64,000 bases of DNA from Candidatus Brocadiia bacterium (GTDB lineage: Bacteria > Planctomycetota > Brocadiia > SM23-32), in the NCBI GenBank assembly GCA_046538485.1, contig JBKHIT010000014.1, positions 23,083 through 87,082 on the forward strand. Reading direction: 5' to 3'. This document shows, in pieces, positions 50,823 through 64,000 of the stretch; position 1 is the stretch's first letter, and every line of letters begins with the position of its first letter. Both the position numbers and the translations under genes were made by a program. The notes below the pieces were generated by a model. The model was given only the letters and a program-made list of their open reading frames with translations. It made no database searches and was not told where the DNA came from.

Positions 50823-51737
50823 TTACGTGAACGGTGGAGGGCTCCCTCCGAAAAGCATTTGAAACAGAGCTCCAATGACTTCCACGTAATGGTCAAGAAT
50901 ACCACAGAGCTGCGCTCTGAAAAGAACAATCAGAACCGATGCGGACGAGAGAAAAGGGCCATAGGGCATCACATGTTCGTCTTCCAGTAACAGCAGAGGA
51001 ATCCCATAAATAAGACCGAAAAATGGGGCGATAAAAAATGCGAGAAAACTAACTTTCCAGCCGAGAAAAGCTCCCACCATGGCCATCAATTTTACATCTC
51101 CGAAGCCGATGGCTTCTTTTCCGAACAAAACCGCACCAAGAATTGCGAAAAAGATGACCAGAATCCCCCCCCCGAGTGCTCCAATCAGGGAACCTATCAG
51201 ACCGTCTAAGTGTTGCAGTCCCGTGAGTGTTTCAAATGTGTGATACGGCTGCTGGCCAACATGGAGTTCCGGCAAAAGCCCTCCCGCAATTATTCCACCG
51301 AACAGTCCGAACACGCTAATCTCGTCGGGAATGATGAAAAATTGCATGTCGACGGCACTTGAGATAACAAGCAGAGATATAAGCAGTCCCATAATGATAA
51401 GTTGTCCCGGCCCCGTGTTCTGACCGACCCCCTGGAGCAAGTATAAACCCAGAAAAAGCAGCCCGGTTAGCCCTTCGATAACCGGGTAACGGAACGAAAT
51501 GGGTTCTTCGCAGTGCCGACATCGCCCGCGAAGAATAAGAAAACTCAGGATTGGGATGTTATCAAAAGCCGCAATGGGCGTTTTGCAATGTGGGCAAAAG
51601 GAACGGTTCGGCTTGGAAATGCACAGCCCCCTCGGCAAACGCCATATACAAACATTAAGAAAACTACCAACGGCACAGCCAAGCAAGAAGAGAATGCCGG
51701 CCATCGCGAACTGCGGAATGGTTATTGCAACTATCAT
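50823..51737 (-). CDS. pilD: Prepilin peptidase (A24, PilD-like)
   Basis: GSFLNVCIWRLP, SFCPHC, DNIPILS, GRCRHC, GFGDVKL, PYGPFL. Confidence 0.93.
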   Translation of the reverse strand: MIVAITIPQFAMAGILFLLGCAVGSFLNVCIWRLPRGLCISKPNRSFCPHCKTPIAAFDNIPILSFLILRGRCRHCEEPISFRYPVIEGLTGLLFLGLYLLQGVGQNTGPGQLIIMGLLISLLVISSAVDMQFFIIPDEISVFGLFGGIIAGGLLPELHVGQQPYHTFETLTGLQHLDGLIGSLIGALGGGILVIFFAILGAVLFGKEAIGFGDVKLMAMVGAFLGWKVSFLAFFIAPFFGLIYGIPLLLLEDEHVMPYGPFLSSASVLIVLFRAQLCGILDHYVEVIGALFQMLFGGSPPPFT

Positions 51738-58799: not shown

Positions 58800-58928
58800 C
58801 TTCAGGCCAATCGACTGTTACCCTCGGGGTAGCTGCCTGTCCGAAAAAAGCGTGGTGCTCCTACCAAACAATCCCCATACGCACCACGCGCTGCCGGGGA
58901 GTTGTCCCTCTCTGGCAGATGCCCCTCA

Positions 58929-58967
58929 GCGGGCGGATCTTACCCGGGTCCGCCCGCTTTTTTTTTT
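58929..58967 (+). terminator. Rho-independent terminator
   Basis: GCGGGCGGATC … GGTCCGCCCGC stem followed by 10 T. Confidence 0.75.
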
Positions 58968-59184
58968 GTTGTCTTGGGGCGAGCAGATCACGTCTTGTTG
59001 CCGCCGGAAAATCATCTCCGCCGACAGAATATTCATCGCTGGGAAAAATCCTTTGATAAACTGCTCTCACGCGGTAGACTATTAGTGTATGGATTGATTA
59101 CCATCTGATACTCAGCGTTTTTTATGGTACGGACTGCCGCAAACGCGACTGCAGCCAAATAAAGGCTGCTCGGGGAGGTTTATT

Positions 59185-59233
59185 ATGAAGCAGGCAAGGA
59201 GGCACGTAAAGACCGGATTTACGCTGATTGAGT
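59185..59233 (+). pseudogene. Type IV prepilin-like leader (5' exon) MKQARRHVKTG|FTLIE, interrupted by a group II intron
   Basis: RBS GGAGGT, ATG 59185, basic leader plus GFTLIE N-methylation motif. GTGTG begins after the first base of the next (Leu) codon. Confidence 0.85.
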
Positions 59234-60004
59234 GTGTGCCCAGTTAAGGCTGGGTAAACTTGTTGGGTGTAAGTCCCAATCGTATTAGTTTCTCATTTCG
59301 AATGCGTAGCCTGACTGCCGGAGTCGCGGAACCAACAGAACAGGGGACCGATTCCGATGCGCAGTGACAAAGTCGCGAGACGGGAAACCGCTCCAACTAG
59401 GGCGGGGACTTAAGGTCAGTCGGAGCGGCGAGGCAAACGCACAGACCGCAGGAAAACGAACATCCGAAGGCATCGCAGGAGGTATCCTGACGGAAGTTGC
59501 TGACAGAGTCAGGTGATCCGGTCACTGGCGATCCTTCGTTCGATAGGAGAAGTCCGATGCAGATGGTGAGGAAAATGGTGAGAATCAAGTTTCCGCGAGC
59601 GAAAAGCATGAAGAAGGCGCGAGCAGGAATCAAAGAGCGGGTGAAGAACATACCGCTTGGCGAGCCGCTTAAGGAGGCCATAGGCGCCCTGAACCGCAAG
59701 TTGCGGGGATGGGCGAACTACTTCCGTATAGGCAACTCCTATGAGGCCGCCCGGGAGCTGACAGCTTTTGCGTGTCAGCAACTGCGTTTGTACCTGCGCC
59801 GCCGTCGAGCTCGCAAGGACATCGTCGGTTACCGGCGATGGCCGAACGGTTTCTTCCATGAGAAAGGGCTGGAATATGTGCCGAATCTACTGTAATCCCG
59901 CGACTGCGGGACTGTCTGCGAAATCACAGCGTGGAAAGCCGGGTGGGGTCCCGCGGCCGCGGGAAGACGCACGGTTTTATCAGGGTAAGTGGACAGCCCA
60001 GTAC
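59234..60004 (+). mobile_element. Group II intron, internally deleted copy (5' domain I, maturase X-domain remnant, degenerate domain V); 3' end approximate
   Basis: 5' GUGUG, GGGU-GNRA-GUCCC hairpin and GGCAAAC…GGAAAACGAAC domain-I motifs. Maturase ORF. D5-like AAGCCG…ACGCACGGTTT at 59936-59977. Confidence 0.85.
59557..59895 (+). CDS. Group II intron maturase-specific (X/thumb, GIIM-like) domain without RT
   Basis: PRAKSMKKARAGIKE…IGALNRKLRGWANYFRIGNS…LRLYLRRR…KGL; no YADD/RT domains; AGGAG 7 nt before ATG 59557. Confidence 0.8.
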   Translation: MQMVRKMVRIKFPRAKSMKKARAGIKERVKNIPLGEPLKEAIGALNRKLRGWANYFRIGNSYEAARELTAFACQQLRLYLRRRRARKDIVGYRRWPNGFFHEKGLEYVPNLL

Positions 60005-60108
60005 GGGGGAGCATGGAAATGGAGGAGGACTTCGTTTGACTTTTTTTTTTGAATATACTATGCATATGCGCTGTCGATACGTCGACTCTTATATGAGGAG
60101 GCAGAAGA

Positions 60109-60204
60109 ATGCGTGAGTGGAAAGCAGGAAAAAGGTTGGGCTTTACTTTAATCGAACTGAAAAGGGAACACAGGGCGTTTGAACACAAAATCCGGGCTAA
60201 ATAA
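60109..60204 (+). pseudogene. Orphan prepilin-like leader MREWKAGKRLG|FTLIEL, truncated
   Basis: RBS GAGGAGG and GFTLIEL, then a charged non-pilin tail ending in the MITE-type terminus AAAATCCGGGCTA and a stop. Confidence 0.75.
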
Positions 60205-60468
60205 ACGGCGCGTTAAGCCTTGCAATACAAGAATAAGTGTACCGTAGGACGCCCAATGTCACGAACATGCCAATGTTATGATAAAAAACATCTTGTCAAG
60301 AAGATACGCCGGTTTGCCGGTTATGTGGTCCAGTCCTGAGATTATGAGCATTTCTGATTGTTGTAACTTTCTGATACTAAACGGCATGTGCCGTTTTCTT
60401 TAACCTGAGATCCCGGTTAACCGCTGTCAATATGATCCTTCCGTTAGAGTGAGAAACGAGAAAAAACA

Positions 60469-61563
60469 ATGGCTATAGGCTTTAAAGGGGAGATAGAAGA
60501 TAGAAACGAAATCAGAGCGGGGTTCATCGGATCTGGCTCTCATTCTTTCAGGAACCTTTATCCAACGTTCCAGTTTACCCCGGTGAATCTGGTTTCGGTG
60601 TCTGATCTTGACATGCGTAAAGCGGAGGCTTTCGCCGACACATTTGGTGCGAAATCGGCCTACGATGATCACGAGAGAATGCTACAAAACGAAGATCTGG
60701 ATGCGGTTTTTTGCTGCACGGGATACGATAATCAGGGACGACCGATCTATCCTCAACTCGCCGTGGATTGCCTTCGTGCGGGTTGCCACGTCTGGACTGA
60801 AAAGCCCCCGGCGGCGTCCTGTACTGACATAATTCAGATGCAGGAGGCCAGTAAAACATCGGGGAAAAATGTCGTCGTTGGCATGAAGAAAATGTTTTTC
60901 CCGGCGAACGAAAAAGCGCGTGAGCTTATGAATTCCGATGATTTTGGTCGTCCCCATCTTGTCACGATTCAGTATCCCCAGAATATCCCGGAAGTCGAGG
61001 AATTCCGGCAATATTTTGAAAACGGAGTGTCCAACTCCGTTGTGTTTTTTCTTGGTCACCTCTGTCATCCAGCCTCCCTTATGGTTTACTTGCTCGGCAT
61101 GCCGGAATCACTCTATTACGAACGTAGCGAGCCAGGAGGTGGTCTGGCTACTTTTCAGTTCGATTCCGGGGCGCTGGCATCAATCGCTTTCACAAGTGGT
61201 GCTTCATCAAACGGTGGTATGGAGCGCACGATGATCGTGGCCCACAACGGGCGACACATATCGGTGGAAAACAATGTACGCGTGACACTACATCGCCTTC
61301 CTTCGCTGGGATACGGTGACGTCCCGGATTACTATCAGGGAAGTTCAGACGAAACCTCCGCCTCCTGGGAACCCGAATGGTCACTCGGGCAGCTTTATAA
61401 TAAAGGTCTCTTCCTGTTGGGCTACTACAACGAGATCAACGAGTTTGCCCAGTCTATACTTGAAGAACGTCCCCCGGCGAAAGGAACACTCGAACAGGCC
61501 TGGCAGGTAACCCGTATCTTTGAAGGATTTGCTGAAGGACCGGGCAAAGTCATATCACTGTAA
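60469..61563 (+). CDS. Gfo/Idh/MocA family oxidoreductase
   Basis: IRAGFIGSG, LDAV, HVWTEKP. Confidence 0.9.
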   Translation: MAIGFKGEIEDRNEIRAGFIGSGSHSFRNLYPTFQFTPVNLVSVSDLDMRKAEAFADTFGAKSAYDDHERMLQNEDLDAVFCCTGYDNQGRPIYPQLAVDCLRAGCHVWTEKPPAASCTDIIQMQEASKTSGKNVVVGMKKMFFPANEKARELMNSDDFGRPHLVTIQYPQNIPEVEEFRQYFENGVSNSVVFFLGHLCHPASLMVYLLGMPESLYYERSEPGGGLATFQFDSGALASIAFTSGASSNGGMERTMIVAHNGRHISVENNVRVTLHRLPSLGYGDVPDYYQGSSDETSASWEPEWSLGQLYNKGLFLLGYYNEINEFAQSILEERPPAKGTLEQAWQVTRIFEGFAEGPGKVISL

Positions 61564-61607
61564 GGGGAAACAATGGATGCCCCATCTGAAAAAACAAGGA
61601 GCTACTT

Positions 61608-61970
61608 ATGAAGGAAGCGAAAGTCCTGCGTGCAAGAGAGTGCGAGAAAATCGATGCGGACTGGGGCGCTCTTACCTGGTTTGCCAGTGGTGAACTGGGG
61701 AACTGCGATGAGATGACAGTGGGCAAATGCGTGATCAAACCCGATTGCGCCAATCCGGTCCACCGGCATCCGGCATGTTCTGAGGTGCTGGTGGTGTGCC
61801 AGGGTCGGATCGCCCACAGCATCGAAAACGGCGAGGAGGTTGAACTGGGAGAAGGCGATGTCATCACAATCCCCAGGGGAATGCCGCATAACGCCCGGAA
61901 TATATCCAACCAGGATGCCGTTTTGCAAATTGCCTTCTCATCCGCTGATCGCAGGGCGGAGGGCGAGTGA
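61608..61970 (+). CDS. Cupin domain protein
   Basis: HRHPACSE…GDVITIPRGMPHN; RBS AGGAG. Confidence 0.9.
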   Translation: MKEAKVLRARECEKIDADWGALTWFASGELGNCDEMTVGKCVIKPDCANPVHRHPACSEVLVVCQGRIAHSIENGEEVELGEGDVITIPRGMPHNARNISNQDAVLQIAFSSADRRAEGE

Positions 61971-61971
61971 C

Positions 61972-62727
61972 ATGAGAGCCTGTCAGATTGCTGTGAGCCC
62001 GTGTTCAAATCCTGAAATGAATCTGGACGAAGTGCTCAGCGCCTATTCCTCTCTTGGATATAGTAAATTCGAGGTCTTTACTTCGTGGGCCAGTAGTGCA
62101 GTTGATTATCATCGTTCCCCGGATGTTTATCTGGAAAAGGGATGTCGGTTTGACATGAATTTTACGTCAATGCACCTCCCACCGGTCAGTGCCGAATGCC
62201 CTGAAGCTACGCTGCAGGAAGCGTATACTGCAGCACAGTTTGCCGAGGCGATTGGCGTGGAGGTTGTTCTATACAAAGCTTCGGATCGATCAACCTACAT
62301 CGAAGCTGCTGAACCGTTTCTGAATGTGGTCGAAAATCTTTCTGTTATCCCCGTTATTCAGAACCACTACGGGACTCCGCTGAGCACCCTCGATGATGTG
62401 AAAGAGGTGTTTGAGGCGATTGGTGACCCGCGTTTGTATTCGCTCCTTGAGGTGGGACACTTTCATTCCGCGGGGGTGACCTGGCGAGAGGCGGCAGAGT
62501 ATCTGGGGGACTCCATTGCACTGGTACATATCAAGGACCAGATCGGACAGCAATCGGTGCCGTTCGGGAAGGGAGAGATCGACCTCCCCGGCTTATTCAA
62601 CTATCTGGACGACCGGGACTACAGGGGCCGTTACGTGGTGGAGATGGAAGTAACGGATGATGAGAATACGCTTTACTACCTGGAACAGGCACGTCATTAT
62701 GTTATGGAATTCTGTGAGGAGATGTAA
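61972..62727 (+). CDS. Sugar phosphate isomerase/epimerase TIM barrel
   Basis: QNH, EVGHF, VHIKD, VPFGKGEID, VVEME; ATG immediately after the cupin stop. Confidence 0.88.
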   Translation: MRACQIAVSPCSNPEMNLDEVLSAYSSLGYSKFEVFTSWASSAVDYHRSPDVYLEKGCRFDMNFTSMHLPPVSAECPEATLQEAYTAAQFAEAIGVEVVLYKASDRSTYIEAAEPFLNVVENLSVIPVIQNHYGTPLSTLDDVKEVFEAIGDPRLYSLLEVGHFHSAGVTWREAAEYLGDSIALVHIKDQIGQQSVPFGKGEIDLPGLFNYLDDRDYRGRYVVEMEVTDDENTLYYLEQARHYVMEFCEEM

Positions 62728-63707
62728 TGAACAGCGATCCGAGAATTGCCATTGTTGGTGCAGGCAGTCTGTCGACCCGGCGCATCTATCCTTATATTGG
62801 CGCTGCCGGCGGGGAGTTGGTGGGCGTGTGCGACCTCGATATCGAAAAGGCCGAGTGCAATGCGCGTCGGTTTGGTGGACGCGTCTATACTGATCTGGAG
62901 AACATGCTGGAGGAGGAACAGCCGGACGGGGTTATCATCTGCATCGGCCCGGAACAACATGCGGAACTGGCGCCCGTTGTGATGAACAGGGGGTTTCCAG
63001 TGTACACTGAGAAGCCACCGGCCGCGTCGGCCACAGCGGCGCTGGAAGTGGCACGCGTATCCGAACAGACGGGAACGCTGTGTACCACGGCGTTTAAAAA
63101 ACGTTATAATAATGCCTATTCCCGTGCAAAAGAATGGTTGAAAGGTTTTGACCCGCTGTCTCGGTATTCCATTTCCGTCGACTACGCGTCAGCCCAGTAT
63201 GATAACGATTCCCCCCGTTCGCTTTTTTTGCTTGATTTCGCCATTCACGTGATCGATCTGATTGGTTTCCTTTTTGGAGATGTGGATCGAGTGTTTGCCG
63301 TTTCAAAGGGGCTGGATGCCTATGCCGTGAGTCTGAAGTTTGCCACCGGCTCCGTGGGGAGTCTCAATTTGAATTGTGGACGCTCCTTCTCCGTGCCCAC
63401 CGAAGAGGTGGAGATTACGGTGGAAGACGGTAATTTCATGACCATCCATAATTCTTCCTGCTGGCGTATTACCGAGGACGGGCAACCGGGCGAGTGGTAC
63501 GAGCCCCCCACTTTTGTTAGTGCCGGGGACAGTGGCAACAATACGGGCCATATGGCGGAAATCGTGGATTTTATGGAGGCCATTCAGCAGGGACGAACCA
63601 CCCGGTCGAATATTTACGAGAGCTACAAGAGCATGGTCCTGTACGAGGCGATCGCTGAGTCAGCGAGAAAAGGTATACCCGTGGATGTGGAATATGCGTC
63701 ATTGTGA
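62727..63707 (+). CDS. Gfo/Idh/MocA family oxidoreductase
   Basis: RIAIVGAG, PDGV, VYTEKP, DFAIHVID; start overlaps the upstream stop. Confidence 0.9.
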   Translation: MNSDPRIAIVGAGSLSTRRIYPYIGAAGGELVGVCDLDIEKAECNARRFGGRVYTDLENMLEEEQPDGVIICIGPEQHAELAPVVMNRGFPVYTEKPPAASATAALEVARVSEQTGTLCTTAFKKRYNNAYSRAKEWLKGFDPLSRYSISVDYASAQYDNDSPRSLFLLDFAIHVIDLIGFLFGDVDRVFAVSKGLDAYAVSLKFATGSVGSLNLNCGRSFSVPTEEVEITVEDGNFMTIHNSSCWRITEDGQPGEWYEPPTFVSAGDSGNNTGHMAEIVDFMEAIQQGRTTRSNIYESYKSMVLYEAIAESARKGIPVDVEYASL

Positions 63708-63718
63708 AAGGTGCTACG

Positions 63719-63782
63719 GTGAATAGTTATAGTGTCACGAACACATCAGATCAAAGTAAAAGCGCTTTTACGCTCATTGAAC
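63719..63782 (+). pseudogene. Prepilin-like leader (5' exon) MNSYSVTNTSDQSKSA|FTLIE, interrupted by group II intron copy 2
   Basis: GAAAGG RBS, GTG start just after the Gfo stop, AFTLIE. GTGTG begins after the first base (C) of the Leu codon. Confidence 0.8.
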
Positions 63783-64000
63783 GTGTGCTCAGATAAGGCT
63801 GGGTAAACTTGCTGGGTGAGAGTCCCAGTCGCATTAGTTTCTCATTTCGAATGCGTAGCCCGACTGCCGGAGTCGCGGAACCAACAGAACAGGGGACCGA
63901 TTCCGATGCGCAGTGACAAAGTCGCGAGACGGGAAACCGCTCCAACTAGGGCGGGGACTTAAGGTCAGTCGGAGCGGCGAGGCAAACGCACAGACCGCAG
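63783..64000 (+). mobile_element. Group II intron copy 2, 5' end (runs off the window)
   Basis: 218 nt align without gaps to 59234-59451 with 8 substitutions (manual alignment). Confidence 0.88.

Follow-up and report, generated by a model that had tools for sequence, protein, structure and literature searches.

A group II intron lineage inserted at the prepilin cleavage/methylation motif, with a copy of its target site in intron domain VI

The window analysed here is the whole 64,000-nt stretch of Candidatus Brocadiia DNA shown above (G000:C20:23083-87082, where G000 is the genome of the window, and C, L and X number contigs, loci and sequencing runs), and its last base is also the end of the contig. 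Close to that end lie two copies of a group II intron, each starting with GTGTG within a gene start that encodes a short leader followed by the prepilin motif FTLIE. Copy 1 is a deletion derivative and copy 2 is cut by the contig end; both are compared below with a full-length copy on contig C44 of the same genome and with L011, the closest intron-encoded protein (IEP) locus of the species-genome collection. The features of this region, with the evidence for each, are as follows.

59172..59178, plus strand: ribosome-binding site (RBS) of host leader 1; the sequence reads GGGGAGG, 6 nt before the ATG at 59185
59185..59233, plus strand: 5' exon 1, leader MKQARRHVKTG followed by FTLIE and T, the first base of a Leu codon; ATG at 59185, junction spanned by an X1 unitig
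59234..60157, plus strand: group II intron copy 1, 924 nt, a deletion derivative; GTGTG start, sub-threshold RF02003 match, likeness to the C44 copy
59538..59544, plus strand: exon-binding site 1 (EBS1), GTTCGAT in a hairpin loop; pairing scan, stem covariation and target covariation
59557..59895, plus strand: remnant IEP open reading frame (ORF) with the GIIM (maturase X) domain only; Pfam PF08388, E 5e-12, with the deletion breakpoint 59578/59579 inside
59936..59977, plus strand: aberrant domain V (D5-like hairpin) with a palindrome in its upper helix; compared with D5 of C44 and L011
59978..60157, plus strand: expanded domain VI (D6) of copy 1; layout homologous to D6 of L011, L093, L101, L103, L114 and L115
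60041..60050, 60095..60101 and 60109, plus strand: T-run, RBS GAGGAGG and ATG within D6 of copy 1
60109..60157, plus strand: D6 leader of copy 1, MREWKAGKRLG followed by FTLIE and C; part of ORF 60109-60204
60158..60204, plus strand: post-intron sequence, not prepilin, KREHRAFEHKIRAK and then a stop; ORF reading, repeat-like from 60186
63719..63782, plus strand: 5' exon 2, GTG-start leader NSYSVTNTSDQSKSA followed by FTLIE and C; junction spanned by an X1 unitig
63783..64000, plus strand: group II intron copy 2, its 5' 218 nt; contig end inside the copy, sub-threshold RF02003 match

Junction 1 reads TTT ACG CTG ATT GAG T at 59218-59233, with GTGTG from 59234, and junction 2 reads TTT ACG CTC ATT GAA C at 63767-63782, with GTGTG from 63783. 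A preliminary description of this DNA had placed near-identical GTGTG elements at these two positions, both after the first base of the Leu codon that follows FTLIE, and both readings hold; the two copies are 96.3% identical over the 218 nt that can be compared before the contig ends. Misassembly, which that description had named as a risk, was checked with Logan unitigs of run X1, which cover 58930-59263 and 59805-63917 with 0 differences and cross junctions 1 and 2, respectively. X1 is probably the sample of origin, and this support is thus that of a different assembler working on non-independent reads. In runs X2, X3 and X11, parts of the window stretch were without cover.

Copy 1 is 80-82% identical to the full-length C44 copy on either side of a 1.3-kb gap. 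The ~1.3 kb missing at 59578/59579 comprises the 3' part of domain I (D1), D2, D3 and the reverse transcriptase (RT) domain. The same deletion is present in C120:50-565, and a deletion-specific X1 unitig has a depth of 56 versus ~30 in the flanks, which fits two deletion copies, on C20 and C120. At 59578, X1 contigs with a depth of 170 run on into full-length intron sequence, and the depth of 196-288 over the shared 5' part of the intron suggests that the sample holds roughly 6-9 intron copies. The body of this high-copy intron is missing from the bin, its existence being shown by the X1 loose ends only. Of the group II features named in the earlier description, copy 1 has the maturase X-domain ORF, by its GIIM match, and a D5 that is aberrant, carrying a GC-rich palindrome inserted in its upper helix; the RT domain is gone and the copy is not intact. 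D6 of copy 1 is also closed more weakly than in other copies, its fold having a 3-bp basal helix and a 2-nt bulge, and window copy 1 is a decayed, non-autonomous deletion derivative that is probably dead. The earlier account had also missed that the intron reaches 60157, where the third FTLIE leader of the region (60109-60157) is the intron's own D6.

BLAST of copy 1 against the whole G000 assembly returned eight intron 5' ends: the two in the window, the complete copy on C44, and five at contig ends (C56, C54, C38, C49 and C42). All eight begin exactly one base after codons for (G/A)-F-T-L-I-E. Across the family, every 5' junction with at least 16 nt of upstream sequence was counted, and all 14 follow FTLIE or FTLVE plus one nucleotide. 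Eight of these are from G000, and the other six, from other genomes or metagenome contigs, lie in the relative G024:C151, in L011 (72% IEP identity), in the metagenome contigs L088, L101 and L103, and in G148:C260, which belongs to another family of the same phylum and has the motif FTLVE. Two contigs cut near the junction, L093 (4 nt upstream) and G148:C496 (6 nt upstream), are consistent with this placement. The insertion point in every case falls between bases 1 and 2 of the Leu codon after F-T-L-I-E, and tabulation of the other copies, proposed as a check at the outset, placed none elsewhere. As had been noted for the two window leaders, the sites resemble each other only in the motif: over the 100 nt upstream of the 16-nt motif, mean identity among the eight G000 junctions (28 pairs) was 0.56, versus 0.55 for shuffled sequences.

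Controls gave no such placement. None of 12 unrelated introns sharing the 5' search pattern follows FTLIE, the junction was found in none of the 76 other loci of the IEP search that yielded L011, and an FTL[IV]E codon site was present in none of 10 loci of an IEP clade of the same phylum at 44-49% identity. In ~10.4 million strand positions, the G000 genome contains 144 FTLIE-coding 15-mers, and 130 of these 15-mers continue into the hydrophobic prepilin helix. Targeting of the prepilin motif is real, and the earlier proposal, that the motif shared by a large paralogous family serves an intron lineage as landing site, is upheld by the 14 junctions together with the 6-7 bp pairing described below. 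As a separate observation, leader-FTLIE stubs at G000:C7 (minus-oriented, 84046) and at G000:C112:39538 run into unrelated sequence with no prepilin body or intron, and from these the motif region seems to be a general breakpoint.

The complete copy (G000:C44:128384-126318, minus strand) is 2067 nt long and lies inside a 202-kb contig; ~790 nt of the intron is non-ORF RNA. Its IEP of 424 aa carries an RT domain (RVT_1, E 1.6e-41) and a maturase domain (GIIM, E 3.7e-11), with no endonuclease domain, and is accompanied by a D5 with an AGC triad and a D6 with a bulged A at -8 and the end AC. The 5' exon ends in ...RTGFTLIE + T, and the 3' exon starts with TG CTG GTG GTC..., which completes the Leu codon and leads into the helix LVVIAIIAIL... 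The same anatomy recurs in the family. GTGTG stands at all 14 5' ends and in the two contig-cut copies, fitting the GUGYG boundary; a ~34-nt D5 with an AGC triad and a 2-nt bulge is found in C44, L011, L093, L101, L103, L114, L115 and G148:C496; and nine copies have a D6 with a bulged A at -8, within the 7-8 nt from an AY end that define this domain, and the end AC. The RT and X/maturase domains are shared by more than 120 IEP relatives (53-88% identity), and a D1 loop pairs with the 5' exon end as EBS1 with intron-binding site 1 (IBS1).

The nearest solved IEPs are class IIC reverse transcriptases (7uim, E 4e-61; GsI-IIC 6ar1, E 9e-58). Each 5' exon is a coding leader, and neither junction has a terminator-like hairpin next to it; upstream of junction 1 the sole terminator-like site is at 58928-58958, 275 nt off. 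Because of these coding-leader exons without a hairpin and the long EBS1, we do not place the family in IIC despite its IIC-like IEPs. Nor is the insertion that of groEL-type IIB1 introns, which lie in or next to a start or stop codon and have a large subdomain Ia at the D1 base, as it lies in the sixth codon of the mature-protein motif, 11-16 codons past the start. Since multiple near-identical copies occupy distinct sites, we infer that the family retrohomes and that its members splice themselves with lariat formation.

Alignment of nine copies from seven lineages revealed a hairpin with a covarying stem (UCCU/AGGA, CCUU/AAGG, CCCU/AGGG and CCCC/GGGG) and a loop that always holds GUUCGAU. 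In a scan of every alignment column, GUUCGA was the sole position that paired 6/6 with all 12 tested 5' exons of seven lineages; the next best position scored 4.9, and the background had a mean of 2.25 with a standard deviation of 0.99. The EBS1-IBS1 pairing comprises 6-7 bp, with GUUCGAU opposite Ile-Glu-Leu codons as A-U-Y-G-A-R-Y. The wobble positions of the Ile, Glu and Leu codons lie opposite intron G, U and G, where C/U and A/G both pair. As every synonymous third position thus faces G or U, wobble lets one intron use most of the ~130 paralogs. The ATA codon for Ile occurs in 0/13 sites occupied by GUUCGAU-type introns versus 41/130 unoccupied sites. EBS1 also covaries with the target in G148:C260, where GUUCGAC lies opposite GTC GAG C (G at -7), and in G148:C496, where GUUCUAU lies opposite (A)TA GAG C (A at -5). 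EBS1 pairing explains the placement of all 14 junctions, and specificity would come mainly from these 6-7 nt.

The 3' ends of the introns were identified at five contig ends (C99, C140, C143, C118 and C138) that share an identical stretch ending in ...GGC TTC ACT CTA ATA GAA C and diverge right after it into prepilin bodies 62-76% identical to each other. The common stretch is homologous to D6 of C44 and G148:C496. In unconstrained minimum-free-energy folds, which included copies with 170-210-nt inserts, nine of ten copies form the same D6, which is separated from D5 by a 2-nt linker and has a basal helix of 5 bp, a bulged A at -8, an upper helix of 7-11 bp and an unpaired AC, and compensatory changes occur at -3, -5, -10, -12 and -13. 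In eight of ten copies, the 3' strand of this helix spells FTLIE codons plus C in frame with the 3' exon, for which the chance at a fixed position, from codon degeneracy, is ~3e-7. D6 reads GFTLIE in the high-copy lineage and window copy 1, RFTLIE in L011/L093 and L103, KFTLIE in L114 and L115, EFTLIE in L101, GFSLIE in G148:C496 and GFLLIV in C44; among the coding lineages, all codon differences within FTLIE are synonymous. The D6 target mimic is thus real and structurally integrated in the intron.

In six copies (L011, L101, L103, L114, L115 and window copy 1) the D6 loop is enlarged by an insert of 170-210 nt. The same insert is present in L093, which nearly duplicates L011 and whose contig stops 2 nt before the 3' end, making seven; L088 and L116 are cut. 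The inserts contain a T-run, a TATAAT-like hexamer, a AAGGAGGT-type RBS, an in-frame ATG and a basic leader, and in all six complete expanded inserts a Shine-Dalgarno (SD)-like AGGAGG or GGAGG(T) core stands 6-9 nt before the in-frame ATG. An in-frame ATG is present in D6 of eight of ten copies; that of the compact high-copy D6 (MRLWRRG-FTLIE) follows GGGGTGA. A sigma-70-type scan called TTTGCA-18-TATAAT in L114 and L093 only. The T-run varies in length from 7 to 12 T (L011:2254-2262 compared with L093, L101, L103, L114 and window 60041-60050), which moves the spacing between the TTGC-type and TATAAT-type hexamers over 15-19 nt, as in slipped-strand phase variation.

Stacked introns were found in L101 and L103, which contain head-to-tail pairs joined at ...TTAATCGAAC followed directly by GTGTG. 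In these pairs the IEP C-terminus is followed by D5, by the expanded D6 with its leader and then by the second copy, and both halves align to L011. The D6 leader of L114 and the 5' exon of G024:C151 share ~85% identity. Host genes were scanned with profiles as unspliced natural ORFs (D6 leader plus 3' exon). The L123 ORF scored 35.3 bits with TIGR02532 (cut-off 16.3) and 34.5 bits with PF07963 (cut-off 21.2), the L125 ORF 35.3 and 39.6 bits, and the L011 ORF 22.1 and 21.7 bits. All three thus qualify as proteins with the prepilin-type N-terminal cleavage/methylation domain. DUF1559, named in the earlier description as an example among such genes, is present in the target gene of L011, which scored 40.5 bits with PF07596 against a cut-off of 23.3; another target gene fell below the cut-off.

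In four paralogs on contig C73, a 63-nt in-frame insert lies between the native leader-FTLIE-C and the 3' exon. It encodes LPFD(G/R)LRTMRKREDAG and then a second FTLIE, and includes an SD-like AGGA, an ATG and a leader, its 3' 45 nt resembling the RBS-ATG-leader end of an expanded D6. In the fourth paralog the native motif has decayed to VTLTE and the intron-derived motif is intact, and in these paralogs Pfam and NCBIfam put the methylation motif on the second, intron-derived copy. The insert looks like an intron remnant reduced to its D6 leader, and its presence in four paralogs may be due to conversion, duplication or recurrent deletion; in the DNA search of relatives it was found in G000 only. 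Double-FTLIE sites on C11, C80 and C112 were also considered as intron remnants and proved instead to be truncated gene fragments beside intact genes. Two prepilin peptidase (Peptidase_A24) genes are present in G000. The positions are as follows.

G000:C73, 36580 and 32067, plus strand; 27781 and 39049, minus-oriented: 63-nt inserts
Window ~51000..51386 (G000:C20:74082-74468), minus strand: Peptidase_A24 homologue scoring above cut-off at 56 bits; the prepilin leaders with introns are 8 kb away
G000:C60:26112-26444: second Peptidase_A24

Taken together, we consider it likely that an intron lineage with an RT and maturase IEP and no endonuclease homes into prepilin-motif DNA, with a D6 mimic that rebuilds the site and may provide a leader. 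In this model, the lineage would retrohome into DNA encoding the prepilin cleavage/methylation motif. The 3' strand of D6 repeats the target, (G/R/K/E)-F-T-L-I-E + C, over a stretch that starts in the upper helix, takes in the bulged branch A and reaches the 3' splice site, so that the junction of intron 3' end and 3' exon again forms a complete homing site. New copies could then stack head to tail at the regenerated site, sparing further genes. The D6 ATG, joined in expanded lineages by a strong RBS and sometimes a promoter-like motif, would let the interrupted gene be translated unspliced, giving a product composed of replacement leader, FTLIE and mature protein, from which prepilin peptidase would remove everything upstream of the motif. 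From the sequences above we infer, with good support, that D6 provides a replacement leader and underlies tandem growth.

A further step, which we regard as possible though doubtful, is that D6 forms a portable gene front end, with promoter-like element, RBS, start and leader, such that insertion is silent without splicing and arrays transcribe themselves. The peptidase would trim whatever precedes the motif, and insertion would on that account be phenotypically silent. If this is true, the D6 promoter of one array copy would transcribe the next, and a retroelement normally dependent on host promoters would gain its own expression unit.

Several observations weigh against homing with a regenerated site and replacement leader. 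No empty-site allele was seen, no read-derived contig joins across either window intron, and neither ligated exons nor a lariat are in evidence at the RNA level. Behind window copy 1 there is no prepilin 3' exon. For a second exon-binding site, the best candidate was UUAAGGU, ~125 nt upstream of EBS1, which scored 5.1/7 versus 4.8 for the runners-up and was rejected, leaving no confident EBS2. In the scan for promoters, none was called in the window copy, L011, L101 or L103, with two of six expanded inserts being positive. The D6 ATG and SD sequence sit within a helix of the folded intron, and the high-copy D6 end AUAGAAC has one mismatch to its presumed own EBS1. The compact D6 of C44 and of G148:C496 is without an in-frame start or an exact FTLIE, its helices being kept by compensatory changes. 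L101 and L103 are metagenome contigs, and a repeat-induced chimera formed through shared leader k-mers could account for them. In the Rfam check proposed at the outset, no group II model reached its gathering score, and the matches were sub-threshold, with RF02003 at 59261-59456 (39.2 bits versus 49, E 2e-6) and at 63810-64000 (E 4e-5, truncated on the 3' side). Scores overall were 31.8-39.2 versus 49 for RF02003 and 31.3-33.6 versus 40 for RF00029, with E values of 1e-3 to 2e-6, and in C44 the RF00029 alignment (33.6 bits versus a threshold of 40) stops exactly at the predicted 3' end. As all anatomical features are present, we read this shortfall as a divergent lineage.

Among the alternatives, the one that survives best, and which we judge rather unlikely, is ordinary site-specific homing in which the D6 likeness is an RNA-level or historical by-product, for example a captured 5' exon frozen by D6 pairing, with the leaders unused and the host genes spliced or lost. 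The two compact lineages, C44 and G148:C496, keep the D6 helix and lose the FTLIE coding and in-frame ATG, so that the feature conserved across the family is the RNA helix with its target mimicry, not the leader. With ~130 paralogs, the loss of one gene may cost little, and four of the six expanded inserts were negative in the promoter scan. Against a mere by-product stand the SD-like core at 6-9 nt from the in-frame ATG, with a basic leader, in every complete expanded insert, the purely synonymous FTLIE differences among coding lineages, and the four 63-nt in-frame remnants, one of which has a decayed native motif and an intact intron-derived one.

A mimic acting at the RNA level appears improbable to us. 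Here the intron tail AUCGAAC would pair with the intron's own EBS1 GUUCGAU, either masking the ribonucleoprotein until a target is met or offering the 3' end as a pseudo-5' exon, which would favour full-length circles, and tandems and leaders would be side effects. The 7-nt complementarity of EBS1 and tail in the expanded lineages, and in G148:C496 where both have changed together (GUUCUAU and AUAGAAC), agrees with this, but tail and EBS1 mismatch at 1-2 positions in the high-copy lineage and in C44. In an RNA library of another study, one unitig runs from the last 22 nt of the compact D6 straight into the intron 5' end, an exact 3'-to-5' junction as a circle would give. Either a full-length circle or a tandem copy could be behind this end-to-end junction: tandem DNA copies, which DNA contigs show, should produce it too, and contigs of an RNA library cannot separate RNA from DNA. 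For the same library, a depth of 721-1169 over the intron 5' part is not readable as expression.

The downstream leaders might also be native, the introns being truncated after D5 and followed by the promoter, RBS and leader of the next prepilin gene, an explanation to which we give very little weight. Prepilin-type genes are often in tandem, 0.9-1.1 kb apart, and the ~85% identity between the G024:C151 5' exon and the L114 D6 leader is like that of paralogous native leaders. Against this, five copies share one sequence as far as ...GAAC and part exactly at that point; in every lineage the FTLIE codons are paired with the strand just after D5, and the helix shows compensatory changes and the bulged A at -8; the contig of L093 is one intron unit long and has the motif at both ends; and the whole mature-protein part of the invaded gene would have to be deleted every time. 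That collapsed or chimeric repeats made the junctions is scarcely credible, since, although six of eight G000 5' junctions are at contig ends, as are five 3' junctions and window copy 2, and the high-copy intron body is absent from the bin of a metagenome-assembled genome (MAG) of 143 contigs that is 88% complete, each junction has unique flanks, Logan unitigs cross both window junctions, C44 is complete inside its 202-kb contig, and the same junction type occurs in other genomes and samples.

In this MAG, ~170 of the 286 contig ends fall in one similarity cluster, with many breaks at prepilin N-termini or intron ends, which points to the gene family and the intron together as a main cause of its fragmentation. 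Searches at the DNA level covered 61 relatives, 132 class genomes and 401 phylum genomes, and members of the intron family turned up only in G000 and G024 (2/132 from the class) and in G148 (one of the 401 from the phylum). A protein search found more than 120 clusters at 53-88% IEP identity, mostly on ~2-kb contigs, as expected of a repeat that assembles on its own, and a pattern scan of viral contigs gave 0 matches. A sister IEP clade of the same phylum at 46-49% identity includes L129, L130, L131, L133, L134, L135 and L136, from genomes G404, G410, G483, G158, G507, G370 and G510. The introns of this clade start with GTGCGTCCTGA (or GTGTGTCC) right after ...CATG in 7/10 loci, and the clade may be another site-specialised lineage, perhaps at start codons.

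In the window, 60186-60410 matches part of a second repeat, which is dispersed over the genome in at least 15 copies. Where this repeat is complete, it carries inverted ends of the type ...GCCCGGATTTTACGGATAATTGG... / ...AAAATCCGGGCTAAAAAAACGGCGC..., resembling those of miniature inverted-repeat transposable elements or insertion sequences, and this repeat may have replaced the 3' exon of intron copy 1. Between the two leaders, 60469-63707 holds a four-gene sugar-type cluster, judged by eye from the translations, with two Gfo/Idh/MocA-like oxidoreductase ORFs, a cupin-like ORF and a TIM-barrel isomerase-like ORF. Prepilin leader 2 begins 12 nt past the last stop of this cluster.

Homing into the prepilin motif would place one RNA segment under a triple constraint, since the same bases form a ribozyme helix, mimic the homing site and encode protein. 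Tandem proliferation at no cost to the host, possibly with an intron-borne promoter, is a route that it suggests, as is a natural design for targetrons against gene families; it also explains why assemblies of such genomes break at prepilin genes. In literature searches, neither group II introns in prepilin, pseudopilin or DUF1559 genes nor a leader encoded in D6 turned up.

Several known systems share parts of this behaviour. Phages and islands that integrate into tRNA genes carry a replacement end of the target gene, which keeps the gene whole. Those elements use DNA recombination by an integrase and replace the 3' end, whereas the element described here is a retroelement replacing the 5' end of its target, and the duplicate serves at the same time as a catalytic RNA helix. 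Group IIC introns resemble the family in that its closest solved IEPs are IIC, its IEP has ~425 aa and no endonuclease (En) domain, and it is multi-copy within genomes. IIC introns insert after terminator or attC hairpins, whereas the 5' exon here is a coding leader with no adjoining terminator-like hairpin, and the EBS1-IBS1 pairing of 6-7 bp contrasts with the short IIC pairing given in PMC12584367.

The closest parallel is the IIB1 start/stop-codon lineage (Avi.groEL, EcKTE56.groEL), in which the end bases of the intron rebuild the groEL stop codon (UAA to UAG) and thereby leave the host ORF intact without splicing (PMC12584367). As there, a lineage is tied to one exact position in a conserved coding context and rebuilds a translation signal. 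The present family differs in targeting an internal motif of a ~130-gene family instead of a single housekeeping gene, in rebuilding at its 3' end a whole leader and cleavage motif within D6, and in having an IEP without an En domain whose closest solved relatives are IIC-type RTs. Proliferating introns of the Thermosynechococcus type, twintrons and side-by-side organellar introns (PMC8393795) likewise include many near-identical copies, RT-less derivatives, and adjoining or invading introns; stacking in our family is distinct in arising from a built-in copy of the homing site and not from a chance target within an intron. The intron C.te.I1 in an S-layer gene of Clostridium tetani also occupies a surface-protein gene with several coding outcomes, including an unspliced transcript, but it concerns a single locus with alternative 5' splice sites, with no D6 mimic, paralog targeting or replacement leader described (PMC3919590).

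By the view given in PMC12584367, gene avoidance is the main way in which bacterial group II introns persist. The prepilin-homing lineage does the opposite, exploiting motif codons that are conserved across more than 100 paralogs: its G/U-rich guide tolerates synonymous variation, and the displaced end of the gene is apparently re-encoded in a catalytic helix, offsetting the damage.

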